A stretch of 64,000 nucleotides of DNA from a virus: UHGV virus genome UHGV-0133741; one strand, 5' to 3'. Under the pieces are notes generated by a model. It made no database searches and was not told the origin of the DNA. It saw only the letters and a program-made list of their open reading frames with translations. Below are positions 13,664-33,662 of this stretch, piece after piece. The position numbers and the translations under genes were made by a program. Each line of letters starts with the position of its first letter. The first letter of the stretch is position 1.

Positions 13664-14881
13664 TTATCCTTTCCGTTTACGGGCTTCGTTAATTTGTGTC
13701 TCAAGAATGCTTCGCGCCTGCGCGGTGGCAGCGGCCTTGTCCATTCCCTGACTTATGAAAAACTTTATGAGGTTGTTCGCCTGCGTTTGCAGGGCTTTTT
13801 TGAGAGCGTCGGCTTCAGCGCGAGCCTGGGCTTCCCTCACCCGCGAGGCTTTTAGTTCGGCACTCTTCCTGTTTGCCGTGGTGCGAGCTTTTTTTAACAA
13901 CCGGCGAACGTTGTCCGTGGCGCTATCTTTGGCGCGTAGTTTTTTGCCTAATGCATCCTGAGATTTCAGATACAGCTCATACTCACGCGCAGCTTTAGCC
14001 TGATCCGTCGTTGTTGTCCGGTTGCGCGCGAGCGATTTAGCCAGTTCGCCTTTGAAATAGGTTGTTGTCTTCCGCTTGTCATCGCCGAAGGCCACCTGTT
14101 CAGCTGCTTTTTCCAGGGCAATAATGATGGCCTTGTGCCATGTGGGAGACTGAAAACGCGTCATAGCGTGCAAAACATGTTTGCAAGCCACACCAGTCAG
14201 ATCAGGGTTGCGGATTTTGGGGAATGCATACTCTTTTGGCGGCGCGACAGCATAGTTACCAGCCGTGGCCATATAACGATACCAGTATTGATGGCGTCCA
14301 CAATCACAGTCGAAAGATACCCGGCCCTTGCAGAGATCGGCAGCGATTCGGGCTTTTTTCGCACCGTCTTCAGCAATATCCTCAACGGCTTTATCCCATT
14401 CCTCAAATCGAATTCTGACACGGTGATGCTGGTGGACCGACTCATCCGAGGCATTAACAGATATCAATGCAAGGTTGTGTTTTAGCCCGAGAAATGTCGC
14501 GGCTTTGATCCCTGTGCCATCAGAAACTTTGTTGTTAGCGCGTTTTATATCAATGCTGGTGGACTGCGCCACCAGCTGAGCATAGGTAATGCCGGGTACC
14601 GTGCTCTTGAATTTGGTTTTATGAGCCTGCCTTGAGGTGTTGAAACTGCGTATATCTTCGGGCGTAAAGTAGGTGCCATCTTTCTTTTTCCCAAGGCTGA
14701 GGAATGCCTCAAGTTCGCGGTTACGCATCCCCATAATCCTTGGGGTGAGTGTACGCCGCGCGTTTCGCCGATTCTGACGCTGCTGTTTACGGATAAGATC
14801 GAAGACCTTGTTAAAGTCTTTTGCACTTAATCCATCAGTCTGATAGCGACCAAGGTTGTCGCGAGCATATTCAGTTGGCAT
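13664..14881 (-). CDS. hypothetical virion-associated protein
   Basis: 405 aa; basic Ala/Lys/Arg-rich C-terminal tail, Cys cluster (CKGRVSFDCDCGRH). Confidence 0.45.
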   Translation of the reverse strand: MPTEYARDNLGRYQTDGLSAKDFNKVFDLIRKQQRQNRRNARRTLTPRIMGMRNRELEAFLSLGKKKDGTYFTPEDIRSFNTSRQAHKTKFKSTVPGITYAQLVAQSTSIDIKRANNKVSDGTGIKAATFLGLKHNLALISVNASDESVHQHHRVRIRFEEWDKAVEDIAEDGAKKARIAADLCKGRVSFDCDCGRHQYWYRYMATAGNYAVAPPKEYAFPKIRNPDLTGVACKHVLHAMTRFQSPTWHKAIIIALEKAAEQVAFGDDKRKTTTYFKGELAKSLARNRTTTTDQAKAAREYELYLKSQDALGKKLRAKDSATDNVRRLLKKARTTANRKSAELKASRVREAQARAEADALKKALQTQANNLIKFFISQGMDKAAATAQARSILETQINEARKRKG

Positions 14882-14890
14882 TCAATTCCC

Positions 14891-15268
14891 TTACGCAATG
14901 GATAATGTCCCTATTACCTGGCCGTCGTATTGGAAATGGCGAATCATTTCGCGGAGCCAGGTGGCAGGTGGGAGTTTTAATTTTTTGCCAACAGTCATAC
15001 CCTGAGACTCATCCTCAAGCCCGGCGGCGAGCGTCACAACCCAGCGTAGCTCTGCTATGCCCCACATACGGTAAGCCAGCAAATCCGGGCGATATTGCTC
15101 ATCGGGAAGAACGTAATAAATCGTCAGATTCTTGTCGTTCGATTCACACATAAGCATCACCTCTTTGCGCAGCTCTGCCCTGAGTATTGGATCGGCTATG
15201 TTGCGGTCGTCATACCGCGACAGAGGATATTGCCGGGTGCTTTGGGTTGTAGTGATTGATGTAGCCAT
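14891..15268 (-). CDS. hypothetical protein, first gene of the minus-strand tail operon
   Basis: 125 aa; divergent from the plus-strand operon starting at 15415, with an operator-like site between. Confidence 0.45.
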   Translation of the reverse strand: MATSITTTQSTRQYPLSRYDDRNIADPILRAELRKEVMLMCESNDKNLTIYYVLPDEQYRPDLLAYRMWGIAELRWVVTLAAGLEDESQGMTVGKKLKLPPATWLREMIRHFQYDGQVIGTLSIA

Positions 15269-15340
15269 AGTCAGCCTGCCAGAAATAGATGATGGTGATT
15301 CTACTGCTAGTCATTTGTTGATTATTTAACTCAATAAAAG

Positions 15341-15357
15341 AAAATTATTAGTGCAAT
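15341..15357. promoter_or_regulatory. C1 operator-like site in divergent promoter region
   Basis: AAAATTATTAGTGCAAT, 15/17 to the reverse complement of the operator consensus. Confidence 0.45.
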
Positions 15358-15414
15358 TTTGGTTGTGAAATGTATCATTCTGCCCTTAAGTAGGTTCTTC
15401 ATGAGGAAACAAAA

Positions 15415-15660
15415 TTGGCAGAACGTGTTGATGATGCAGAGCTGAGCATGAATCAGTTAGAAGCTCTCAAAGACATGGCCATCGATAACATCAGAAAGCA
15501 GGCACAGGTCGTGAGCCAGGTATTTACAGGGAAGTGTCGTTACTGCAATGAACCGATTGAATCAGGCATCTATTGTGACGCTGAGTGTGCGCAATGGCAC
15601 AGGGAAGAGCAGGCCGCAAAACAGCGTAAATATGGCATGCGACCGGCAGGATTTGACTGA
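15415..15660 (+). CDS. TraR/DksA-family C4 zinc-finger protein
   Basis: 81 aa; CRYCNEPIE...YCDAEC motif; TTG start with GAGGAAAC RBS. Confidence 0.55.
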   Translation: MAERVDDAELSMNQLEALKDMAIDNIRKQAQVVSQVFTGKCRYCNEPIESGIYCDAECAQWHREEQAAKQRKYGMRPAGFD

Positions 15661-15662
15661 TT

Positions 15663-16241
15663 GTGTTGCGCTTTACTGAGCAAGAGTATCTGGCTTTCAG
15701 TAAGCGCAGGAAGAAAGGATGGGCTAAGCCAAAGCCCAAAAAGGATCCGTTCTTATCACTTGCCCCGGTAAAAGAAGTTTCGCCACATGCGAAGGCGCTT
15801 GCAGCACTGGCAAAAAATCCTGATCTGCGAGTAGGAAATTGCGAGCACTACGAACAGGTTTTCATTTTTGATTACTTCGAGCGCAATTACCCTGAAATTT
15901 ATGAGCTGTTGCATGCAACGCCTAACGGAGGGAAGCGTTCAAAAGCAACCGCCGGGAAAATGAAGGCTGAAGGGCAGAAAAAAGGTTATCCGGACATGAG
16001 TCTCGATAAAGCATGCGGTATTTATCACGGCATGCGAATTGAGCTTAAAGAACCAAATGGTAAAGCCCCGACGAAAGAGCAGATCGCCTGGATGCGCAGG
16101 CTTAGAGAGGAAGGTTACTACGTCGTTCTTGCGTATGGTGCAGAACAAGCGATAACCGCCATCCTGGAATACATAAGCCTTAAAAAGGGTGAGGCTATTG
16201 AGCATGTATTGAACGGCGACAAGTGGTTGCATGCTGCTTAA
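15663..16241 (+). CDS. VRR-NUC domain nuclease-like protein
   Basis: 192 aa; C-terminal PD-(D/E)xK-like VRR-NUC signature (NGGKRSKA...GYPDMSL...ELKEPNGK...QIAWMRRLREEGYYV). Confidence 0.6.
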   Translation: MLRFTEQEYLAFSKRRKKGWAKPKPKKDPFLSLAPVKEVSPHAKALAALAKNPDLRVGNCEHYEQVFIFDYFERNYPEIYELLHATPNGGKRSKATAGKMKAEGQKKGYPDMSLDKACGIYHGMRIELKEPNGKAPTKEQIAWMRRLREEGYYVVLAYGAEQAITAILEYISLKKGEAIEHVLNGDKWLHAA

Positions 16242-16437
16242 AATAATAAATTAATTAGTGCATATGTGCTCTTTGATATAGCGCACATTAACATCGGGAG
16301 AATAATCGTGTCATTCAAGGCTAATTATGAATCGCTGGCATCGATCATGCCGCGTAATGAACAGGAAGCAGATGCTGTAGTGGACCCGGTAATCGCTGAA
16401 ATGAATGCTCGCCTGGAGGCTGAATTTGCAGCTGAGA

Positions 16438-17067
16438 ATGAACATACCACCCAGGGCGACTAGGACTGTTTTTTGTGTCGGTAGCGGTCCGTCACTCACT
16501 CGTGAGGACTGTGCTGCTATAGAAAAAACTGGCTGTTCAATCATCGCGGTTAACAATTCCTGGCAGATGTTCGATGACATTTATGCCTTATACGCCGGTG
16601 ATTTGTCATGGTGGAAGCAATACGGATCCACCATACCGGGAGGGAGATTCCGCAAAGTGACAGCCAACCTGGCGGCGGCGAAATCATTTTCGTTGGAGTA
16701 CAGGCGATATTGTGGACCGGCTGAAGGGGTTAATAGCGGCGCGCAGGCTATCAGTCTGGCGGCTGAATCAGGGGCTGAAGTAGTTGTATTAGTCGGCTAT
16801 GACTGTTCTCTGCAAAACGGCCTTCATTGGCATGGAGCACACCCTCAAGCACTACGGAATCCAACGCAGGTATCTATTTCAAAATGGCAACAGCAGTTCC
16901 TGGATACCCGCAAAAAACACGCAGATTTACATATTTTGAATGCAAGTAGGAGCAGTGCAATTCAATGTTTCCCAAGAATAAATTTAGAGGCAGTGATCGC
17001 GTTATTATCGTCGGCAGTGGCCCAAGCGCCGCAAACTTTGTTGCGCCGCGCGGAGTGCCGATTATAG
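16438..17067 (+). CDS. Rossmann-like protein with GSGPS motif (paralog A)
   Basis: Motifs VGSGPS...IIAVN...D...NSGAQAISLAAESGA...VVLVGYD...HWHG; start at internal ATG; 3' end overlaps paralog B by about 100 nt. Confidence 0.45.
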   Translation: MNIPPRATRTVFCVGSGPSLTREDCAAIEKTGCSIIAVNNSWQMFDDIYALYAGDLSWWKQYGSTIPGGRFRKVTANLAAAKSFSLEYRRYCGPAEGVNSGAQAISLAAESGAEVVVLVGYDCSLQNGLHWHGAHPQALRNPTQVSISKWQQQFLDTRKKHADLHILNASRSSAIQCFPRINLEAVIALLSSAVAQAPQTLLRRAECRL

Positions 17068-17591
17068 CGGTCAATGGGGCCATCGACTGGCTTAACCGCG
17101 CTTCTTATTTTTTCACACTTGATCCATCGCCAGACAATATGCGGCGCGTTGGTCGTGGCCGCCGTCGCCGTGGTGTTTGTTATTGCATGGCACTACCCGA
17201 TGTTAAAGAACGTGAAGTCAGAGATGGCGTTCTGTGCTTCCGTCGTGTGGCTGAACGCGGCACGGAGCCAAAAAATACGAATTCTCCCGAGTGGTGGGCG
17301 TGGCGCTGGTCCGCACATTTCGGCCTTTGCGAAGATGAGAATGAAATTGCCAGCGGCAATAGTGCATATGGTGCTCTGAACCTGGCTTTCCATATCGGAT
17401 TCAAACATGTAGCCCTGGTGGGCGTTGACGCTACGCAAGAAGCACGCGTTCACTCCGGCGGCACGCCAAAAAATCTAAGTCACCTGCCTTTGTTATTCCA
17501 GTCTGCGCGTGAACAGATTGACGTTGTTTCATGCGGGAAAATGGGAGGTATTCCGCAGATGACTCTTAAAGAATGGCTGAAGAATACATGA
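16965..17591 (+). CDS. Rossmann-like protein with GSGPS motif (paralog B)
   Basis: 208 aa; same motif order as paralog A (VGSGPS...IIAVN...TLDPS...[24 protein letters not shown]); Arg-rich insert ([11 protein letters not shown]). Confidence 0.5.
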
Positions 17592-18265
17592 TGGCACCCA
17601 CAATTTATCACCGTATCGACGGTACCAAATACAGAAATGTCTGGGTTGTTGGTGATCTGCATGGTTGCTACACCAGACTGATGTCCGAACTCCATCGTGT
17701 GGATTTTGACCCGGCGCAGGATTTACTGATATCGGTCGGCGACCTTATCGATCGCGGTACTGAAAATGTCGAATGTCTGGAACTATTGCAGATGCCTTGG
17801 TTCAGGGCAGTGATGGGGAACCATGAGCGGTTGATGCTCGATGCGTTAAGTCCTGATGGCAACGTGAATAACTGGCTAATGAATGGCGGTCAATGGTTCT
17901 TCATGCTGGACGCTGATCAGGAAATATTAGCCAGGGCGCTGGTGGAGTTGGTAAGACGACTGCCCTATATCATTGAGTTGAACACCGGGCAAGAAACTAT
18001 CGTTATAGCCCATGCCGACTATCCGGATAATGAATATCAATTCGGTAAGGAGGTGCCGCTTTTCAACGTTGTCTGGGCGCGCGAGCGTATCAGTGATTCG
18101 ATGGATGATATTGGTGGCGAAATTTCGGGCGCAGATCGTTTTATCTTTGGTCACACTCCGGTGAAAAGCCCGAAGACATTCTGGAATCAGCATTATATCG
18201 ACACTGGTGCCGTATTTTGCGGAAACCTGACATTGATGAAAGTGAAAGGTGATGGTGCAGCATGA
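17573..18265 (+). CDS. ppp: Ser/Thr protein phosphatase (lambda PPase-like metallophosphoesterase)
   Basis: Calcineurin-like motifs VVGDLHG, GDLIDRG, GNHE. Confidence 0.8.
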
Positions 18266-18963
18266 AGATTGCTTTAGTTCTTCGCTCTGGTGGTGACTAT
18301 AACGCTTCCGATGTGCAGTGGCTGGTTAATCAACTGCCAAAAGGCTATGAAATTATTTGCCTGACAGACCTGAAGCGTTTACATGTACCTGGTGTCAAAG
18401 TTGTCCCATTGATCAACCAGTGGCAAAAGTGCCGTGGCTGGTGGGCGAAAATCGAGTTGTTCCGACCGGATATAACCGATGATCTGTTCTATCTGGATTT
18501 GGACACGGTTATTGCCGGTGATATACGCCCAATCCTTGAGAATCCACCAAGCAGCTTCACCATGCTTAGGGATTTTTACCATCCACAATATCGTGGTAGC
18601 GGTGCACTGTGGATACCAAATAGTGTAAAAGCGCATATCTGGAGTGCATTCTGGCAAGATCCGGAAGGTTGGATTTCTCGTTGTGTCACTACTGAGTGCT
18701 GGGGTGATCAGGGGTTCTTACGGAAGGTTATGGGCGATGATACACCAGCATTTCAGGATCTGTATCCAGGATGGTTTGTAAGTTACAAGGCCGATGTTGT
18801 GGAACCTGGTTCAAAATATGCGAGCGCGCGTTACTCCAGGGGGAATGGGGCATTACCAAAGGACTGCCGAATAATTTTTTTCCACGGCAAACCGCGACCT
18901 CGCGAAGTGTCAGAGGATTGGCTTCCCCTTATCAGCTCGTTTTTTGAGCAAGAATCAGAATAA
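18262..18963 (+). CDS. nucleotide-sugar transferase-like protein
   Basis: 233 aa; DxD-like motif ([11 protein letters not shown]); start overlaps the ppp stop. Confidence 0.5.
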
Positions 18964-18964
18964 T

Positions 18965-19030
18965 ATTGCTCTAATAATTCCATATTTTTAAAGCGTGATG
19001 TACACTCATCACGTTTTTTATTAGAGCAAT
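18965..19030. promoter_or_regulatory. pair of inverted C1 operator-like sites flanking a terminator hairpin
   Basis: ATTGCTCTAATAATTCC (18965-18981) and reverse-oriented ATTGCTCTAATAAAAAA (19014-19030) flank a CGTGATG-TACACT-CATCACG hairpin followed by a T-run. Confidence 0.5.
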
Positions 19031-19044
19031 CCATAAGGTGCACT

Positions 19045-19263
19045 ATGTGGCCATTCCGACGGAAATATCACTACTGGCTGATCGCCTTTGTTACGCCGAC
19101 CGGCGGTATCAGGCATGTCATCACCAGGTATCGCAACAAGAGACTCACCTTAGCCAGAATTTTACAGGCTGCCATAGGTGAGGGACTGGATACAAATTGC
19201 GTAGTCCTTCCTCCTTCATACTTAGGAAAAATGACCGAAGCACAAGCTAATACGGAACTTTGA
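19045..19263 (+). CDS. hypothetical small protein
   Basis: 72-aa ORF directly after the operator pair; stop abuts the next gene start. Confidence 0.3.
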   Translation: MWPFRRKYHYWLIAFVTPTGGIRHVITRYRNKRLTLARILQAAIGEGLDTNCVVLPPSYLGKMTEAQANTEL

Positions 19264-19264
19264 A

Positions 19265-20527
19265 ATGAGCACTTCAGCACAAAACCAATCAATCGAAAAT
19301 GTATCTATCCCTGATGTCCTGAATGCCGGTATCCCGGCCATTATCCAGAACATCCGGGCCGCGCAACGCCGCGTTAGTTGTGATGACCTCACAGCACGTT
19401 TTTTTGATAATGCGGTTCAGTCAGCGGAGATGCTTCACGCACAGCTTATTGATGTTTATAACGCAGAAGCTGATAGCCATAACTCCCTGGTAGATGCAGC
19501 TGAAAATATGCAGTTGGATCTCGGTCTGAAGGGTAAAGAAATTGAAGAGCTTCAGCTGCAAATTGAACATTTGAAACGCCAGCAACAGGACGCGATCGAC
19601 GATGCGACGCATGACGCCAACCAGCGTGCTGATAATGCCGAACGTATAAGCATTGAGCTGGAAACAAAACTCAATGAAATGACCGCGATGGTTGAACTGC
19701 GGAACTCACAGATTTCAACGCTAAAATCTCAATATAAAGAGATCATGAAACTTGATCCTTTTAACCTTGAGAAACGCTATAACAAAGCTAAAAGCGAGCG
19801 ACAGGAACTGCGTAAGCAGGTCGCCGACCTTAACCAACAGCTCAAAAAAACTATTAAAGATGCAAGCGAGGCGCGCGTGGCATTTGCTAATAAAAAAGCA
19901 GAGGTTACCGCGCTGGTTAATGAGAATGCCAAATTTGCGACGCTCAAGAAGGAAATGTATGGCATTACTGAGCGCCGTTTCCCTGCAAGCAAACTTCATC
20001 CGACGTTAGGGCAAATCTCCTTCTTCCCGCGCCTCCTGGCTTATGGGATCTCATCGCCTAAAGAGTTCAATAACGAGCGTCCTTATATCGTTTCTAAGCT
20101 GGACTTTGCTTATCAGTTCTGCTGCGACATGGGCTATGCCATTGATATCCGAATCAACGAATGGTTGATGCCAAACTTCCAGCCGTTGGCAATTTTCCGC
20201 GAGTTCCAGCCGGAAGGTTGGGTAGAGTTCTTCCATGAATTGATCTGTAAAGAGATGGAAAGCCGCCGCCCGGAACTGGTCCGCCGTGTCGAGTGGGCGC
20301 AAGAGGTTATGTTGGCAGATGCAGAGCTGCCGTTCGAACCGGAATTCATTGATGATCTGGCAACTAAAGGGCTGCATACCCTGTTTGATGTGGTTACCCG
20401 CCGTCATGAGCAGTTGGTTGTCGAATTGGGTTTAGAGGAAACAGCGGCAAGAAGACTTCTCGATGTTTGCTATGCACGTAGCGATGCATGGGAAAAAGAG
20501 AACGGCGGCACTATTTACGTTCGCTAA
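19265..20527 (+). CDS. hypothetical protein with N-terminal coiled coil
   Basis: 420 aa; heptad-rich N-terminal half, Cys/Trp-containing C-terminal half; no recognised catalytic motif. Confidence 0.5.
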   Translation: MSTSAQNQSIENVSIPDVLNAGIPAIIQNIRAAQRRVSCDDLTARFFDNAVQSAEMLHAQLIDVYNAEADSHNSLVDAAENMQLDLGLKGKEIEELQLQIEHLKRQQQDAIDDATHDANQRADNAERISIELETKLNEMTAMVELRNSQISTLKSQYKEIMKLDPFNLEKRYNKAKSERQELRKQVADLNQQLKKTIKDASEARVAFANKKAEVTALVNENAKFATLKKEMYGITERRFPASKLHPTLGQISFFPRLLAYGISSPKEFNNERPYIVSKLDFAYQFCCDMGYAIDIRINEWLMPNFQPLAIFREFQPEGWVEFFHELICKEMESRRPELVRRVEWAQEVMLADAELPFEPEFIDDLATKGLHTLFDVVTRRHEQLVVELGLEETAARRLLDVCYARSDAWEKENGGTIYVR

Positions 20528-20546
20528 TAGTTACAGTGTCACTTTT

Positions 20547-20582
20547 AATGCTGGTGGAGTGCGTCCCACCAGCATTTTTTTC
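20547..20582 (+). terminator. intrinsic terminator
   Basis: Perfect 11-bp stem AATGCTGGTGG/CCACCAGCATT with 8-nt loop followed by TTTTTTT. Confidence 0.65.
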
Positions 20583-20600
20583 GTCCAATGAGGAGGGCAT

Positions 20601-21104
20601 TTGAGTATTTTCAATAAACACGCACACCAGGAACGTCCGTATATCGTCATAGTCGATATTGATGGAACAATATCAGAGGCAACTGAAGACAGACTGCATT
20701 TGCTTCCGCCACCAGGTAAAGGTGCATTAACAAAGGACTGGAACGAGTTTAATCTCGCCTGTGACACCGATACTCCCATCACTCCAGTTATTGATATGGT
20801 GCGCCAGTTATTTAACGTTTACACGGTCTGGTTTGTAACCGGGCGCTGTGAGATCGCAAGGGATAAAACACGAGCTTGGCTGCGGAAGTACGTAACAAAC
20901 GGGGCTGAGCCTTTGCTATCTATGCGTCCTGCCACCGATGACAGAAATGACGGCCCAGCAAAGATTGATCTCCTTAAGAAAATTGGTCTAAGTAAAATCG
21001 CGTTCGCGCTGGAAGATAAGATTGAAGTGGCGCGTGTTTTCAGGAGTCACGGCGTACTTACGTTAATGGTCAGGGAGTATGAAAACGCGCTTCTCCATCA
21101 GTAA
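20601..21104 (+). CDS. HAD-superfamily phosphatase-like protein
   Basis: 167 aa; N-terminal DIDGT motif (VIVDIDGTIS); TTG start with GAGGAGGG RBS. Confidence 0.55.
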   Translation: MSIFNKHAHQERPYIVIVDIDGTISEATEDRLHLLPPPGKGALTKDWNEFNLACDTDTPITPVIDMVRQLFNVYTVWFVTGRCEIARDKTRAWLRKYVTNGAEPLLSMRPATDDRNDGPAKIDLLKKIGLSKIAFALEDKIEVARVFRSHGVLTLMVREYENALLHQ

Positions 21105-21106
21105 TA

Positions 21107-21123
21107 ATTGCTCTAATAAATCT
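21107..21123. promoter_or_regulatory. C1 operator-like site
   Basis: ATTGCTCTAATAAATCT, 16/17 to consensus; upstream of the small-peptide/ASCH/PAPS-reductase genes. Confidence 0.55.
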
Positions 21124-21205
21124 TGATTTTTAAAGCAGAGAAAGTGAAAATAAAAACATGCCGCAAGGCGCGGCATGTATCCAATCAATCACAGGAGCTG
21201 AAAAT

Positions 21206-21292
21206 ATGAACACGGCATTCAAAATCATTATGGCCGCGATCTATTTCTGGCTGTTCTCTATCACTTTTGGCGGCATCGTCGCGCATGGGTAA
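21206..21292 (+). CDS. 28-aa hydrophobic peptide (single TM)
   Basis: CAGGAG RBS 8 nt upstream of ATG; encodes MNTAFKIIMAAIYFWLFSITFGGIVAHG; below the ORF-track size cut-off. Confidence 0.3.
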   Translation: MNTAFKIIMAAIYFWLFSITFGGIVAHG

Positions 21293-21301
21293 GGGGGATG
21301 C

Positions 21302-21880
21302 ATGAAAGGCGAAGTGAAAGAGCGCGGCATGATTTTCAACGATGAGATGGTCCGGGCAATTCTTGGGGGGAATAAAACACAGACTCGCAGGATTGTTGAA
21401 GAAAAATTCTATGGACGGGCAGTGGCCGTAGAGTTGCTTGCTAAGCATTGTCCATATGGTCAACCGGGCGATCGTATTTGGGTTCGCGAAACCTACCGGG
21501 TACATGGCAAAGCGACGGACGTCGCAACGCTGGTTTATCGCGCAAGCGTGCGTAACTCCTGGACAGAACAAACGCACCGGGTTCCGGTCGAGGTTTGTAA
21601 TAAACCAGTATCAGAAAAGTGGACGCCATCAATTCACATGCCGCGCTGGGCTTCGCGTATTTTGCTGGAAATTACCGACGTGCGTGTGGAACGGCTGCAT
21701 GACATGAGCGAGGCAGATGCTAAAGCGGAAGGCGCATCTCCGGCGACGTACAAGATTACACCGCCGGAAGCTGTTTATCGCGTTGGTTTCGGTGATATCT
21801 GGCGCGGTATTTACGGGCAAGAGAACTGGCTATCTAACCCGTGGGTATGGGTAATCGAGTTTAAGCGCATTCAGGAATAA
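21302..21880 (+). CDS. ASCH-domain-like protein
   Basis: 192 aa; N-terminal MIFNDEMVRAILGGNKTQTRR and PYGQPGDRIWVRE motifs, typical of phage ASCH-like proteins as I remember them; AAGGGGGA RBS. Confidence 0.5.
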   Translation: MKGEVKERGMIFNDEMVRAILGGNKTQTRRIVEEKFYGRAVAVELLAKHCPYGQPGDRIWVRETYRVHGKATDVATLVYRASVRNSWTEQTHRVPVEVCNKPVSEKWTPSIHMPRWASRILLEITDVRVERLHDMSEADAKAEGASPATYKITPPEAVYRVGFGDIWRGIYGQENWLSNPWVWVIEFKRIQE

Positions 21881-21883
21881 ACC

Positions 21884-22762
21884 GTGAGTATGCATCAAGT
21901 CGTCAGCTTTTCAGGTGGACGAACATCAGCTTATCTCGTTCATCTGATGGAAGCACAGCGAAAAGCTGGCGCTAGCGTCCATTTCATTTTTATGGATACC
22001 GGCTGTGAACATCCTCTGACGTATCGCTTTATTCGTGAGGTTGTGAAGTTCTGGAACGTACCGCTAACGGTGTTGCAGGTCGATATAAATCCAGAACTTG
22101 GGCAGCCAAATGGTTATACGGAATGGGAACCAAAGGATATTCAGACGCGAATGCCGGTGATTAAACCGTTTATGGACATGGTTAAAAAGTACGGTACGCC
22201 ATACATCGGCGGCGCGTTCTGTACTGACAGGCTAAAACTCACCCCTTTCATGAAATATTGCGATGACCATTTTGGGCGAGGGAATTACATCACATGGCTG
22301 GGTATTCGTGCGGACGAACACCGTAGGCTGAAACTGAAACCGGGCGTCCGGTATCTTGCAGAGCTGTCAGATTTTGATAAGTCGGATGTTATCCGGTGGT
22401 GGCGAAAACAACCTTTTGATTTGCAAATCCCGGAGCACCTCGGGAACTGTGTTTTTTGCATCAAAAAGTCAACGCAAAAGCTGGGGCTTGCATGTAAAGA
22501 CGAACCTGGTCTGATGCGGGTTTTTAATGAACTGGTTACAGGCAAACACGTCAGGGATGGTCATCGCAGAACAGGTAAAGACGTTATGTACCGTGGCCAC
22601 CTGACGCTTGACGGGATTGCCAGAATGTATGCCGACAGTGACTACAGAAATTTGTATCAGGCGATGGTGCTGGCCAAGCGGTTTGATACTGGTTCGTGTT
22701 CCGAATCATGTGAAATCTGGGGTGACCAATTGGAGTTGAAATTCGAAGAGGTAGTGGAATGA
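21884..22762 (+). CDS. PAPS reductase-family (PP-loop ATP pyrophosphatase-like) protein
   Basis: 292 aa; PP-loop-like VVSFSGGRTSAY near the N-terminus; Cys-rich C-terminal region. Confidence 0.65.
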   Translation: MSMHQVVSFSGGRTSAYLVHLMEAQRKAGASVHFIFMDTGCEHPLTYRFIREVVKFWNVPLTVLQVDINPELGQPNGYTEWEPKDIQTRMPVIKPFMDMVKKYGTPYIGGAFCTDRLKLTPFMKYCDDHFGRGNYITWLGIRADEHRRLKLKPGVRYLAELSDFDKSDVIRWWRKQPFDLQIPEHLGNCVFCIKKSTQKLGLACKDEPGLMRVFNELVTGKHVRDGHRRTGKDVMYRGHLTLDGIARMYADSDYRNLYQAMVLAKRFDTGSCSESCEIWGDQLELKFEEVVE

Positions 22763-22962
22763 CAATCGTAAAAACCCATACCGGTACCGTGATCACCAAA
22801 GATGGCCCGAAGGTAAAAAAACTGCACCAAACAGAGCGGATGTGGGTCGTTGGCAAAAACGAGTTTTACCACAAAGAAACTGGACGCCGCCATTTTGCAG
22901 AAAATACGCGCCGCCGACTGCTGTTAGACACCATCAAGCCTATCGAGGTGAAGCATGTTTAA
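22759..22962 (+). CDS. hypothetical small protein
   Basis: 67 aa; start overlaps the preceding stop (ATGA). Confidence 0.35.
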   Translation: MTIVKTHTGTVITKDGPKVKKLHQTERMWVVGKNEFYHKETGRRHFAENTRRRLLLDTIKPIEVKHV

Positions 22963-23194
22963 ACAGAACGAAAAAGCTATCGCTCAAATTGCTGATTATA
23001 TCCCGCGTGCGTGCCGGGGTATGCAGTTGCAGGAAGCCAAAGCGCGCCTAGAGAAAAAAATTGCGCTCTATATTGATGACGGATGTGATGCCGCCGTTCT
23101 TAACGCGGCGTTCGCACCAGCTCTTAACTGTCACACTCGGGAGTCTTTTTTTTCGTGCATCGCAGCGCAACTCCGCCAAGGAGGCAACCAGTGA
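22955..23194 (+). CDS. hypothetical small protein
   Basis: 79 aa; overlaps upstream gene by 8 nt; its TGA overlaps the GTG start of the next gene. Confidence 0.35.
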   Translation: MFKQNEKAIAQIADYIPRACRGMQLQEAKARLEKKIALYIDDGCDAAVLNAAFAPALNCHTRESFFSCIAAQLRQGGNQ

Positions 23195-23541
23195 GTAACC
23201 GTTTTTACATGATGTGCTTGCGTGAAACCGTGGGTAATAACGCCTCATTCCATTGCCATAACGGCAATGGTTACAGCTCTGATATCGATCGCGCTCATGT
23301 TTACACGCTGGAAGAAGCCCAAAAAGCCTGGAATTGTGGGCGAGATATCGAGCCACCTATTAGCGCCAATCTTGATGTTGCTGGTGGCAGGCTGGTTTCG
23401 GTTCTATTTGGTGATTACCGCGACGACTTCTTTCAGCCTGAAGAAGTTGATGTAGTGCGAGAAGCATTAAACGAGCTAAGTGTTGATAACGATGATGCTC
23501 ATGCGGAAATCATCAAAAAAATGGAACTGCTAACTCACTGA
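23191..23541 (+). CDS. hypothetical protein
   Basis: GTG start with AAGGAGG RBS at a 6-nt spacing; 116 aa. Confidence 0.4.
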   Translation: MSNRFYMMCLRETVGNNASFHCHNGNGYSSDIDRAHVYTLEEAQKAWNCGRDIEPPISANLDVAGGRLVSVLFGDYRDDFFQPEEVDVVREALNELSVDNDDAHAEIIKKMELLTH

Positions 23542-24348: not shown

Positions 24349-24993
24349 ATGGCGGAAATGACCAGAATCACTGAAGAGCGTATATCAGAGATTATTTCCC
24401 GTATCGAAATGTATGGTCACGGTGCTGGACATACGGCAGATGAAGTATTGGAAATAGCCCAGCAGATGCTGGCCTTGAGACAAAAAGAGCAACATGAAAG
24501 TAATACGTGTAGATTGAATTTTGAGCAGTGGCTGGAACAGCAACGCGGAAAAATCAATGTGGACTGTGGTTGTGTGTCCACTGAAACATTCATGCACTGG
24601 CTGCGGGTAGCCTACGAGGCTGGCAACTATCCGGATATTCCGGATAGTTCGGTGCCAACGCCAGGAAAGGGCGTCACCGGTGAACGTATCCGCATTAAGC
24701 CGCATGTTTATCGCGAACTGGTTAACCACCTCCACGATACAGCGATCAAGTGTGCTGGCACCCAGCAATTACGAGAAAAAATTAGCCGTGTTTTGGGCGA
24801 CGTTATTACGCCAGATCATCATAAACAAGTCGAGAAAAGTGGCTTGGAAAGATGTCACCTTGAGGCGGCATTAAACATTAAGCCGGGGCATACGCTTGGC
24901 ATTATTGATGCACTATTGGTTCATAAGATGGCCAGGGCTTTACTGCCGCTGGTGGCTGATAAGCATGAGGCGGATCATGCCAACGAAAGCTGA
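24349..24993 (+). CDS. hypothetical protein
   Basis: 214-aa ORF with no recognised motif. Confidence 0.45.
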   Translation: MAEMTRITEERISEIISRIEMYGHGAGHTADEVLEIAQQMLALRQKEQHESNTCRLNFEQWLEQQRGKINVDCGCVSTETFMHWLRVAYEAGNYPDIPDSSVPTPGKGVTGERIRIKPHVYRELVNHLHDTAIKCAGTQQLREKISRVLGDVITPDHHKQVEKSGLERCHLEAALNIKPGHTLGIIDALLVHKMARALLPLVADKHEADHANES

Positions 24994-25521: not shown

Positions 25522-25610
25522 GAGGTTGATGCAGAGAGTCTTTCATACCTCATAAACGGCATATTTGCGAAATGTATGTGTGTTCAGATTGGTGTCAGAC
25601 TTTTATGCTA

Positions 25611-25642
25611 AAATCCCCTCTGTAAACTGAGGGGATTTTTGT
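25611..25642 (+). terminator. intrinsic terminator
   Basis: AAATCCCCTC-TGTAAACT-GAGGGGATTT hairpin followed by a T-run. Confidence 0.6.
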
Positions 25643-26562: not shown

Positions 26563-26895
26563 TTGCATTTCTCTAATCCGGTCCAGAATAACTTCATGCG
26601 GGCGGCAGACAGCCATCACCGTGAGGGAATATTGCAGGGTGCTTTGCTGGTGGTTGATTCTTCGCTTACTCCAGTTGATGGTTCGCTGCTTGTGTGCGCT
26701 ATGGAGGGTGAATATCGCATAAAGAGATACCGAAAGTACCCGCGCCAGCACCTGGAGGATTTAAGCACCGGGAAGAAAGAGGCGTTACCAGTAGATGACG
26801 ATGGTTACACGGGTAGTAATGCTGTTTTTGGTGTGATCACTCATGTCATCAATGATGCCCGAAGTGAGGAGTTTGATGATTGTCCGGTCATTTAA
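26563..26895 (+). CDS. humD: UmuD'-like (S24 peptidase family) protein
   Basis: C-terminal half aligns by eye with UmuD' (LLVVDSSLTPVDGSLLVCAMEGEYRIKRY...VFGVITHVI); TTG start, alternative ATG at 26596; position just upstream of phd-doc. Confidence 0.6.
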   Translation: MHFSNPVQNNFMRAADSHHREGILQGALLVVDSSLTPVDGSLLVCAMEGEYRIKRYRKYPRQHLEDLSTGKKEALPVDDDGYTGSNAVFGVITHVINDARSEEFDDCPVI

Positions 26896-33562: not shown

Positions 33563-33579
33563 TAATTTATTAGAGCAAT
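33563..33579. promoter_or_regulatory. C1 operator-like site
   Basis: TAATTTATTAGAGCAAT, 16/17 (reverse orientation). Confidence 0.55.
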
Positions 33580-33645: not shown

Positions 33646-33662
33646 ATTGCTCTAATAATTCT
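33646..33662. promoter_or_regulatory. C1 operator-like site
   Basis: ATTGCTCTAATAATTCT, 15/17. Confidence 0.55.

Follow-up and report, generated by a model that had tools for sequence, protein, structure and literature searches.

What is the unit that occupies positions 21107-22762 of the 64,000-nucleotide viral sequence analysed here (the window)? We propose that it is probably the promoter-proximal portion of the known OpmgT (Op88) early operon of phage P1, carrying two independent accessory enzymes, the ASCH-fold protein PmgT and the PP-loop protein NinC. Both genes belong to known families and stand in a known regulatory setting, and by analogy a counter-defence role is plausible. Judged by alignment, the window is a P1-like phage-plasmid, colinear with P1 (NC_005856) until position 21393, that is through pmgS, pap, OpmgT and the initial 92 nt of pmgT. 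A first-pass annotation, made from the sequence alone, had described an operator, a hydrophobic mini-peptide, an ASCH-like protein and a PAPS-reductase-family protein in this region; all four elements are present at or near the positions it gave, but it did not recognise the two larger genes as the already named pmgT and ninC. The features are listed in Table 1.

Table 1. Features of the OpmgT operon region, in window coordinates.
Feature	Position	Strand	Basis
C1 repressor operator OpmgT (former Op88), ATTGCTCTAATAAATCT	21107..21123	+	16/17 match to consensus
Predicted sigma-70 promoters P2pmgT/P1pmgT, overlapping the operator	21108..21151	+	Transferred from P1 annotation (L001 6608-6651)
10-bp GC-rich hairpin in the leader	21156..21178	.	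Terminator-like scan match on the minus strand (21178->21156)
28-codon hydrophobic ORF, MNTAFKIIMAAIYFWLFSITFGGIVAHG	21206..21292	+	AGGAG SD at 21193-21197, 8-nt spacer
PmgT-family protein, 192 aa, ASCH (PUA-like) fold	21302..21880	+	K25, T28, R30 and E143 align with YqfB catalytic residues
NinC orthologue, PAPS-reductase-superfamily PP-loop protein	21884 (GTG) or 21890 (ATG)..22762	+	Pfam, homologue alignment, lambda match
Two small genes: 67 aa phrog_1226, 79 aa phrog_1344	22759..23194	+	PHROG matches

The regulatory setting is that of P1. A scan with the 17-bp asymmetric C1 consensus ATTGCTCTAATAAATTT, allowing up to three mismatches, returned 15 operator-like sites in the window versus 0.3 expected by chance, and the OpmgT site differs from the consensus at a single position. 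This site coincides with an annotated P1 protein_bind feature (L001 6607-6623; offset 14500), its sequence is identical in P1, and it lies directly 3' of pap, overlapping the −35 element of the pmgT promoter. The operator that had been noted ahead of the gene set is thus real and is the annotated P1 C1 operator OpmgT/Op88, which makes de-repression upon loss of C1 a reasonable reading. By analogy with the P1 annotation, the operon would be off while C1 is bound, as in a lysogen, and would be transcribed early upon infection or induction. The promoters P2pmgT and P1pmgT were absent from a simple consensus promoter scan of the window and are therefore weak matches. The genes are as tightly packed as had been described, with gaps of 9 nt and 3 nt, after which the next ORF overlaps ninC by ATGA. 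The first-pass annotation closed the unit at 22762, but same-strand small genes run on to about 25.6 kb. The P1 gene name pap does not denote a PAPS reductase; that reading is ruled out, and pap (20601-21104) is the upstream gene for a HAD/PNKP-type phosphatase.

On the plus strand, the leader hairpin is a stem-loop about 30 nt 5' of the mini-ORF; read on the minus strand, it is terminator-like, with TTTTATTTTC following it. Its stem is seen in both the MFE and the centroid folds, and the exact hairpin 24-mer occurs in 83 P1-like viral contigs. The stability of the leader RNA fold is unremarkable (z = −1.4), and so no riboswitch or attenuator is claimed. An Rfam GcvB match over the hairpin was sub-threshold (20.3 bits versus 42) and was taken as chance.

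The 28-codon ORF that follows, a putative coding sequence, is conserved at the DNA level among P1-like leaders, and its pattern of variation suggests that it most likely belongs to the conserved leader and is not a selected membrane effector. A back-translated pattern search for synonymous peptide variants recovered P1-like loci only, is biased by its design, and was replaced by a hairpin-anchored sample of 80 P1-like loci, in which the ORF is intact in 77 and in 2 more with a shifted offset. A longer, 44-codon form could begin at an ATG at 21158, a start that lies within the hairpin and has no SD. The alternative that the ORF encodes a genuine small inner-membrane protein (an effector, toxin or membrane-protein regulator) expressed upon de-repression is possible, although we consider it distinctly the less probable. 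It would explain the good SD and ATG, the single hydrophobic segment of about 20 residues, the annotation of the ORF as a CDS in SJ46 and phi456, its retention with the operator and leader even beside convergent restriction-modification (R-M) cargo, and a dN/dS of roughly 0.4 among alleles. The intactness of the ORF in 79 of the 80 loci also speaks for it, but is expected regardless at about 97% identity. Moreover, variants of the mini-ORF are spread 5/6/7 over the three codon positions (p = 0.39), with no third-position bias, versus 8/5/34 for pap in the same genomes (p = 5e-8; Fisher p = 0.02 for the two genes compared). Charged or polar residues replace core residues of the hydrophobic segment (G22D in 4 loci, G23D in 2, L16Q in 1), and variant density is about that of the non-coding spacer. 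Likewise, no homologue or analogue was found outside P1-like leaders: none lies upstream of the PmgT genes in 73 non-P1 loci, and the peptide has zero matches in Pfam, PHROG, NCBIfam and PADLOC. IncF plasmids contain 84 bp of the mini-ORF body, which was rejected as independent conservation; this copy is a relic beside hsdR, cut by IS1 and devoid of a start codon. Thus the ORF, SD and hydrophobic segment described in the first-pass annotation stand, whereas the suggestion of a membrane effector is not supported, given the missing protein-coding substitution pattern and the confinement of the ORF to the P1 leader. As part of the leader, the ORF is possibly translated and coupled to pmgT.

How did pmgT and ninC come to lie side by side? 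A 1.3-kb block (21893-23198) is 92.5% identical to Stx2a phages, and its boundary is the ninC start codon. The phrog_1226 and phrog_1344 genes were co-transferred with ninC in this block, and the same gene order is found in the early-left region of phage PA2. By these sequence comparisons, ninC is a lambdoid gene acquired within a block common to Stx2 phages, and pmgT and ninC, brought together by mosaic recombination, are independent accessory genes and not a co-evolved pair. The P1-like loci vary accordingly at this point. Among 70 of them, a PmgT gene comes first past the leader in 52 (8 of these with NinC), a convergent hsdR gene is found in 16, and 2 carry other genes. As judged from these gene contents, the site just 3' of the leader is a cargo hotspot for PmgT alone, PmgT with NinC, or a convergent type I R-M system.

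The first-pass annotation had instead joined all three products (peptide, ASCH protein, PP-loop protein) into one co-functional modification or anti-defence module, acting once C1 repression is lifted. The tight same-strand packing behind one operator is in keeping with such a module, as are the recurrence of the arrangement in several P1-like plasmids and the ties of both families to phage adenine methyltransferases (a NinC-Dam fusion; a methyltransferase gene near PmgT in 21 of 80 loci, within 2.5 kb). We nevertheless regard it as highly improbable. A PmgT-family gene lies within 6 kb of NinC in only 3 of 80 loci, all three of them P1-like, and NinC adjoins PmgT in 1 of 80 PmgT loci; P1 itself has PmgT without NinC; the block edge falls exactly at the ninC start, and the Stx2 phages that share the block have no adjoining PmgT; ninC follows PmgT-family ORFs of two length classes, about 180 and about 240 codons; and the peptide is missing from all non-P1 contexts.

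PmgT has, by fold comparison, an ASCH/PUA-like beta-barrel. The earlier description of this protein as ASCH-like therefore holds for the fold but not for the Pfam model: ASCH (PF04266) scores 16.1 bits, under its gathering threshold of 21.2, and is matched at E < 0.01 by 9 of 59 PmgT relatives, the other 50 falling below threshold. In hhalign, the PmgT segment ILGGNK25TQT28RR30 aligns with ILAGRK21TIT24IR26 of Escherichia coli YqfB, in which Lys21, Thr24, Arg26 and Glu74 are catalytic (PMC6972931), and a global alignment places PmgT D139 and E143 opposite YqfB H70 and E74. K25, T28 and R30 are invariant and E143 is at least 90% conserved among 59 diverse PmgT homologues. The link to YqfB comes from the fold comparison and hhalign only; BLASTP detected no similarity between PmgT and YqfB, and single-sequence and profile searches of PDB sequences with PmgT gave zero matches. 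We propose, by analogy, that PmgT is probably a hydrolase of the ASCH fold whose active site, Lys/Thr/Arg/Glu, resembles that of YqfB, and that its most likely reaction is the removal of an N-acyl or similar group from a cytosine-type base, whether in a nucleoside, RNA or DNA.

Literature searches on the function of NinC or PmgT yielded essentiality data alone: both genes are nonessential by CRISPRi (PMC10695390). In other prophages the PmgT family is found among early-left accessory genes, next to RecT, exonuclease, methyltransferases, xis and int. The historical name of the gene, with its putative morphogenetic function, would make PmgT a virion morphogenesis protein, as the P1 annotation label and the term 'morphogenetic protein' in some database entries for relatives have it. 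We give this reading almost no credence and consider it largely refuted by the dispensability of PmgT for plaques in the CRISPRi data (PMC10695390), by the enzyme-like ASCH fold with conserved catalytic-type residues, by the placement of the family among early-left accessory genes and not structural genes, and by the C1 operator control of pmgT, at which no late promoter is annotated.

The second enzyme, NinC, matches lambda Nin290 over residues 3-287 (E = 7e-160), and PAPS_reduct (PF01507) scores 36.4 bits versus a cut-off of 22.5, over N-terminal residues 6-71 only. Across 43 homologues, the SFSGGRTS motif is invariant at S8, S10, G11, G12, R13 and S15. The cysteines are laid out as Cys113, Cys126, Cys189-x2-Cys192 and, in the tail, Cys272-x3-Cys276; the first four are invariant in the same homologues and the tail pair is at least 90% conserved. 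The earlier call of a PAPS-reductase-superfamily PP-loop protein with a Cys-rich tail is thus borne out by the above-cut-off Pfam match, the motif and the conserved cysteines. The family profile matches CysH structures at E = 3e-6, and the fold neighbours of NinC are APS reductase and [4Fe-4S] sulfurtransferases. PAPS/APS reductase (CysH) has a degenerate P-loop that does not use ATP and a C-terminal ECGLH catalytic Cys motif. A bona fide CysH identity was rejected for NinC, whose PP-loop is of the canonical SGGxxS form and whose tail, GSCSESCE, is different, and which scores 13-22 bits with the NCBIfam cysH, PAPS_reductase and APS_reductase models versus cut-offs of 154-254.

Among defence systems, the profiles nearest to NinC are those of the phosphorothioation enzymes SspD, BrxP and DndC. 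SspD is the best defence-model match in PADLOC for 43 of 43 family members (E = 1.3e-13 for the window protein), in a match that spans NinC residues 5-151 only and profile positions 2-124 of 277; the NCBIfam DndC model TIGR03183 scores 16.9 bits versus a cut-off of 290.4. We propose that NinC may be an ATP-pyrophosphatase that, within the PAPS-reductase superfamily, belongs to the SspD/DndC branch. The cysteine pattern and fold neighbours suggest that Cys113, Cys189 and Cys192 probably hold an Fe-S cluster, and the cysteines of the flexible tail would probably carry sulfur or substrate. No DndA/D/E or SspA/B/C partners lie near ninC, where the adjoining ORFs are PmgT and small phage genes, and a cysteine desulfurase, a DndD/SspC ATPase and DndE/SspB are absent from its neighbourhood here. 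With the phosphorothioation partners absent nearby, autonomous phosphorothioation is doubtful.

What, then, could NinC do for the phage? The PAPS domain of Vibrio phage 44E38.1 p0018 is 54% identical to NinC over 283 aa (E = 3e-107). When the p0018+p0019 cassette was moved into a sensitive phage, it gave anti-Dnd activity (Piel et al.; bioRxiv 10.1101/2021.05.05.442762). Anti-defence operons regulated by Aca are reported to include PAPS reductases (PMC13551039). The anti-Dnd result came from two genes, one of them a PAPS-Dam fusion, and the PAPS domain by itself was not shown to be sufficient. The window NinC ORF stops at residue 292 and has no PF05869 (Dam) domain. The anti-defence or modification role first suggested for the gene set thus has, for NinC, a precedent in the 44E38.1 cassette, whose homologue differs in possessing the Dam domain that is missing here. 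We propose, by analogy with that cassette, that the most likely role of NinC is to counter phosphorothioate-based (Dnd/Ssp-type) defence, either by shielding phage DNA or by interfering with the system.

In most phages, NinC is found next to genes for replication and recombination (its usual viral neighbours being NinB/Orf, O/P-like replication proteins, a DnaB-like helicase, NinG/Rap and RusA), and a role in DNA metabolism therefore fits this placement equally well. NinC might accordingly serve phage DNA replication or recombination, for example through ATP-dependent adenylation in the processing of a nucleotide or DNA intermediate. This would suit its position in lambda and its dispensability, which it shares with other nin genes (PMC10695390). 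We judge it rather unlikely, given the anti-Dnd link of the closest characterised homologue, the phosphorothioation enzymes SspD, BrxP and DndC as nearest defence profiles, and the location of ninC in accessory early regions, away from replication genes, both in Stx2 phages and here. Two further readings have small chances of being right. In the first, which we consider very unlikely, NinC would be an enzyme of the TtuA/NcsA/TilS type, thiolating or otherwise modifying RNA (tRNA), and would adjust the tRNAs of host or phage in lytic growth. The second, equally speculative, is that NinC-type proteins could be self-sufficient, single-polypeptide, ATP- and Fe-S-dependent modifiers of DNA sulfur or backbone, obtaining sulfur via host IscS and placing an early mark on phage DNA that evades Dnd/Ssp/BREX-4-type surveillance, with PmgT, in this P1 lineage, as a partner that edits or erases a modified base. 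If true, it would give a function to the long-unexplained ninC of lambda and define a minimal phosphorothioation-like pathway.

If our favoured assignments of a YqfB-like hydrolase and a counter-defence PP-loop protein hold, biochemical roles open to testing could be assigned to two very widespread phage families (the PmgT family alone comprises over 43,000 clusters at 50% identity), and the site after P1 Op88 would be a hotspot for defence and counter-defence cargo in P1-like phage-plasmids. In Enterobacteriaceae, such phage-plasmids commonly carry resistance genes. The elements described here are known genes in a known regulatory context; their arrangement is already present in many deposited plasmids, and the result is thus a useful annotation and not a surprise.

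Finally, the region can be set against the systems that it most resembles. It shares with the P1 OpmgT (Op88)-pmgT-pmgU-pmgV operon, whose genes are nonessential (PMC10695390), the operator and its position after pap, the leader hairpin and the mini-ORF. The first 92 nt of pmgT are also common to both alleles, which diverge past codon 31, so that P1 PmgT has 309 aa and the window protein 192 aa, at 44% identity. Beyond pmgT, the P1 genes pmgU/V, upfM-O, hot and lxr are replaced here by ninC and lambdoid 'ea'-type small genes, and of pmgU only a fragment is left in the window (24613-24958). Lambda NinC (Nin290) has the same PP-loop and cysteine set as the window protein, at 78.6% identity over nearly its full length. 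The lambda gene is nonessential (PMC10695390) and is flanked by NinB and NinD within the nin region of pR. The window gene instead belongs to a P1 operon under C1 control, and its closest relatives at the DNA level occur in the early-left region of Stx2 phages.

The comparison with characterised enzymes is similarly divided. NinC has its superfamily and an intact PP-loop in common with SspD, DndC and BrxP, and its conserved cysteines are compatible with the three-Cys [4Fe-4S] cluster described for DndC (PMC10853773); unlike those enzymes, it has no match to an SspD or DndC model at the equivalog level. The whole NinC-type domain, including the TGSCSESCE tail, is shared with 44E38.1 p0018, and both are phage accessory genes within variable regions; p0018 is fused to Dam and was assayed jointly with p0019, whereas the window NinC is a standalone protein. 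Likewise, PmgT matches the Lys/Thr/Arg/Glu positions of E. coli YqfB, an ASCH-domain N4-acetylcytidine amidohydrolase, while the auxiliary pair His70/Tyr89 of YqfB is not reproduced, H70 being replaced by Asp (D139). YqfB is a compact single domain of about 103 aa; PmgT is nearly double that length, with insertions and a C-terminal helical extension.

Do the C1 operator OpmgT (formerly Op88), the 28-codon hydrophobic ORF in the leader behind it (the mini-ORF), the ASCH-like protein and the PP-loop protein constitute one functional module? At ~97% identity, the region and its surroundings are colinear with the genomes of phage P1 and other members of Punavirus; positions 1-6893 of locus L001, from the P1 reference (NC_005856), correspond to 14500-21393 of the window with a 97.7% match, and this alignment fixes the local gene map tabulated here, with the P1 pmgT start falling at 21302. 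The elements of the first-pass annotation, namely the operator, the 28-codon ORF, the 192-aa ORF (a PmgT allele) and the 292-aa ORF (NinC), are all present where it placed them. The earlier ORFs are separated by gaps of 9 and 3 nt, and ninC overlaps the next ORF by ATGA. Small genes on the same strand run on to a terminator-like hairpin near 25610-25639; therefore, the unit does not stop at 22762, as had been assumed. The P1 gene name pap invites a mix-up with PAPS reductase, an identity rejected on finding a phosphatase domain; the gene lies upstream of the operator and outside the C1-controlled unit under discussion.

Features around OpmgT, in window coordinates
Feature	Position	Basis or remark
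pmgS	19265-20527	P1 alignment
pap (P1 gene name)	20601-21104	HAD/PNKP-type phosphatase domain, PF25109; phrog_415 polynucleotide kinase
OpmgT (former Op88), annotated C1 operator	21107-21123	directly after pap; P1 annotation
Leader hairpin, 10 bp, GC-rich	21156-21178	on the minus strand followed by TTTTATTTTC, intrinsic-terminator-like
Mini-ORF	21206-21292	AGGAG 8 bases upstream, a good Shine-Dalgarno (SD) sequence; one hydrophobic stretch
PmgT allele, 192 aa	21302-21880	DNA and protein homology to P1 pmgT
NinC, 292 aa	21884-22762	tblastn to lambda Nin290

The 16/17 operator was confirmed: ATTGCTCTAATAAATCT has one mismatch to the consensus, and the sequence, including the T-to-C change at position 16, is identical in the annotated P1 OpmgT. 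The window contains 15 operator-like sites (≤3 mismatches) versus 0.3 expected from shuffles. Several of the others are paired, as at 5109-5125 with 5120-5136 and 33563-33579 with 33646-33662, and the pair at 18965-18981 and 19014-19030 corresponds to P1 OpmgRa/OpmgRb, upstream of pmgR-pmgS. The leader hairpin is kept as an exact 24-mer in 83 P1-like viral contigs. Its putative minus-strand terminator, pointing against the operon, may halt transcripts that enter from hsd-like convergent cargo, an arrangement that would make sense at loci with convergent cargo.

Two surveys argue against a co-functional module. When 80 viral loci with NinC relatives (36-98% identity) were searched with a PmgT-family HMM, a PmgT gene lay within 6 kb of NinC in only three, all P1-like. 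At the other loci the neighbours are NinB, O/P-like replication proteins, a DnaB-type helicase, NinG and RusA, as in the lambdoid nin region; that NinC usually sits among nin genes suggests a role in replication or recombination, the main rival to the anti-phosphorothioate role for which its homologies, described below, argue. Conversely, NinC was found near PmgT in one of 80 PmgT-family loci (L088-L167; 39-83% identity), again P1-like. PmgT is usually preceded by RecT, YqaJ exonuclease and a methyltransferase of the Dam or MT-A70 type (12 and 9 loci, respectively) and followed by excisionase and integrases; in 21/80 loci an orphan adenine methyltransferase of either type shares the strand of PmgT and lies no more than 2.5 kb away, and in 10 of these 21 it is adjacent. 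In non-P1 prophages, the PmgT-family genes occupy the early-left region. Thus both families belong to early accessory regions and are linked with orphan adenine methyltransferases, but in these loci they do not travel as a pair. Where they adjoin here is a mosaic junction.

The site after Op88 is a cargo hotspot. Phage phi456 and the plasmids S30-C and p1079 are homologous to the window as far as ~21296, directly past the mini-ORF stop, where a type I restriction-modification system (hsdR, hsdS and others) in convergent orientation takes over. Across 70 P1-like viral contigs that extend far enough downstream, a PmgT-family gene comes first in 52 (ORF classes of ~120 to 300 codons), with NinC after it in eight of the 52; convergent hsdR occurs in 16 and something else in two. 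Since the restriction-modification layout recurs in these 16 contigs and the three references, defence cargo alternates at this site with PmgT/NinC-type cargo. An 84-bp piece of the mini-ORF body (window 21213-21296; 4001-4084 of locus L002) is found, 98.8% identical, beside the hsdR 3' end. Many conjugative plasmids of E. coli, Klebsiella and Salmonella, IncF types among them, carry it between IS1 and hsdR; in the IncF plasmids it is cut by IS1, and it has the look of a remnant left by an hsd cassette of P1 origin.

Further boundaries lie within the operon. The first ~92 nt of pmgT (about 30-31 codons, 21302-21393) are nearly identical in DNA to P1 pmgT and yet the proteins, aligned with indels along 232 of the 309 residues of P1 PmgT, share only 44% identity, which suggests a recombination boundary inside the gene. 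The block 21893-23198, comprising ninC and genes of 67 and 79 aa, is 92.5% identical to more than 60 Stx2a-converting phages, where it resides in the early-left accessory region and has RecT, EaA and an antirepressor nearby; lambdoid Stx phages and P1-like plasmids have recently exchanged this block. A 346-bp fragment (24613-24958), 94% identical to P1 pmgU and embedded in a 214-aa ORF (24349-24993) for which no Pfam match was found, adds a further mosaic junction to this operon. After the variable region come a truncated-looking HumD/Peptidase_S24 ORF (26563-26895) and a phd-doc toxin-antitoxin pair (PF02604, PF02661; 26962-27569); P1 homology picks up again at 26591.

Is the mini-peptide a membrane effector? 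The strong ribosome binding site and hydrophobic segment described for it are present, and the pmgT SD abuts its stop codon. An SD-preceded hydrophobic small ORF precedes PmgT in 7/80 loci, all encoding this P1 peptide (one with A11S), and in none of the 73 others; the background rate is 13/400. In an unbiased sample of 84 P1-like loci anchored on the exact hairpin 24-mer, the mini-ORF is intact in 77, intact with a spacer-indel offset in two and recombinant at its 3' end in one. Its 18 variant alleles (8 synonymous, 10 non-synonymous) are spread 5/6/7 over the three codon positions (binomial test for an excess at the third, p = 0.39) and include G22D, G23D and L16Q within the hydrophobic core. 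The last 200 nt of pap in the same genomes vary 8/5/34 (p = 5e-8), a different pattern (Fisher p = 0.02). Because it lacks third-position bias and its variant density is similar to that of non-coding spacer, the mini-ORF behaves like conserved leader DNA and not like a selected protein, which speaks against an effector. It may be translated, for example coupled to pmgT.

The PmgT allele belongs to phrog_874 (function unknown), a family with 43,383 cluster representatives (E ≤ 1e-3, 50%-identity library). Its proposed ASCH character did not survive the Pfam search (PF04266; 16.1 bits, cut-off 21.2), and only 9 of 59 diverse relatives match at E < 0.01; it held at the level of predicted fold and active site. 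An AlphaFold model from the 59-relative set is confident (pLDDT 90.3), hhalign places PmgT ILGGNK25TQT28RR30 on YqfB ILAGRK21TIT24IR26, and a global alignment places D139/E143 on H70/E74 and VIEFK on VIEFK. K25, T28 and R30 are invariant in the family and E143 is at least 90% conserved; YqfB cannot do without K21, T24 or R26 and depends strongly on E74 (PMC6972931). We infer from these alignments that PmgT is a hydrolase with a YqfB-like active site and that it probably acts on a modified base of the cytosine type. We do not assign it to the YqfB subfamily: unlike YqfB, PmgT has Asp at the H70 position and is twice as long, with extra elements.

NinC is 78.6% identical to lambda Nin290 over residues 3-287 (tblastn), and an alternative start (ATG 21890) gives 290 aa, the length typical of the family. 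Its assignment to the PAPS-reductase family was borne out by PAPS_reduct (PF01507), above threshold over only the N-terminal 66 residues. Across 43 relatives the PP-loop (S8, S10, G11, G12, R13, S15), D38-T39-G40, C113, C126, C189 and C192 are invariant, and the Cys-rich tail is likewise real (GSCSESCE; C272 and C276 at least 90% conserved). Of the defence-system profiles, SspD matches best (E = 1.3e-13), with BrxP and DndC next, and all 43 relatives match SspD (best 2.8e-18); these three are PAPS-reductase-type components of DNA phosphorothioation systems (PMC12707154; PMC12839542; PMC10853773). NinC scores below the cut-offs of the equivalog-level DndC and CysH models, and DndC/CysH-type operon partners are absent nearby. 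Homologues in Vibrio, Erwinia and Salmonella phages fuse the NinC-type domain to a Dam methyltransferase (PF05869), and one cluster fuses it to DUF551 (PF04448); these fusions are P0213, P0221, P0238, P0239 and P0132. P0221 is the PAPS-Dam protein p0018 of Vibrio phage 44E38.1, whose PAPS domain, cysteine tail included, is 54% identical to NinC across 283 residues. In the work of Piel et al., p0018 was transferred with the adjacent p0019 into a sensitive phage, and the recombinant grew on a Dnd-carrying, retron-deleted host (bioRxiv 10.1101/2021.05.05.442762). A survey from 2026 also detected DndC/SspD-like PAPS reductases within Aca-regulated anti-defence operons (PMC13551039). We found no paper on the function of NinC itself; by CRISPRi, lambda ninC and P1 pmgT are nonessential (PMC10695390).

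We propose that C1 would keep the operon silent in the lysogen and that, upon infection or induction, host RNA polymerase would start at promoters overlapping OpmgT and read across the leader to transcribe pmgT, ninC and the small genes. PmgT would hydrolyse a modified base or nucleoside. NinC would adenylate its substrate with ATP, an Fe-S cluster and the tail cysteines performing sulfur chemistry on DNA; alternatively, it would mimic SspD/DndC. Either way, NinC would blunt phosphorothioate-based defence. We are highly confident of what the genes are, of the operator, of the mosaic structure and of the hotspot; C1 silencing and transcription, the PmgT hydrolase and the anti-phosphorothioate role of NinC are each tentative, and we give each rather less than even credence.

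Finally, all the elements are already known as members of named families (Op88, PmgT, NinC), and the same arrangement exists in deposited P1-like plasmids at 96-98% identity. What is added is the demonstration that the trio is not a module, the recognition that a cargo hotspot follows Op88, the model-based assignment of PmgT to ASCH at fold level, together with its conserved YqfB-type site, and the placement of NinC, by homology, beside SspD and the anti-Dnd PAPS-Dam protein.
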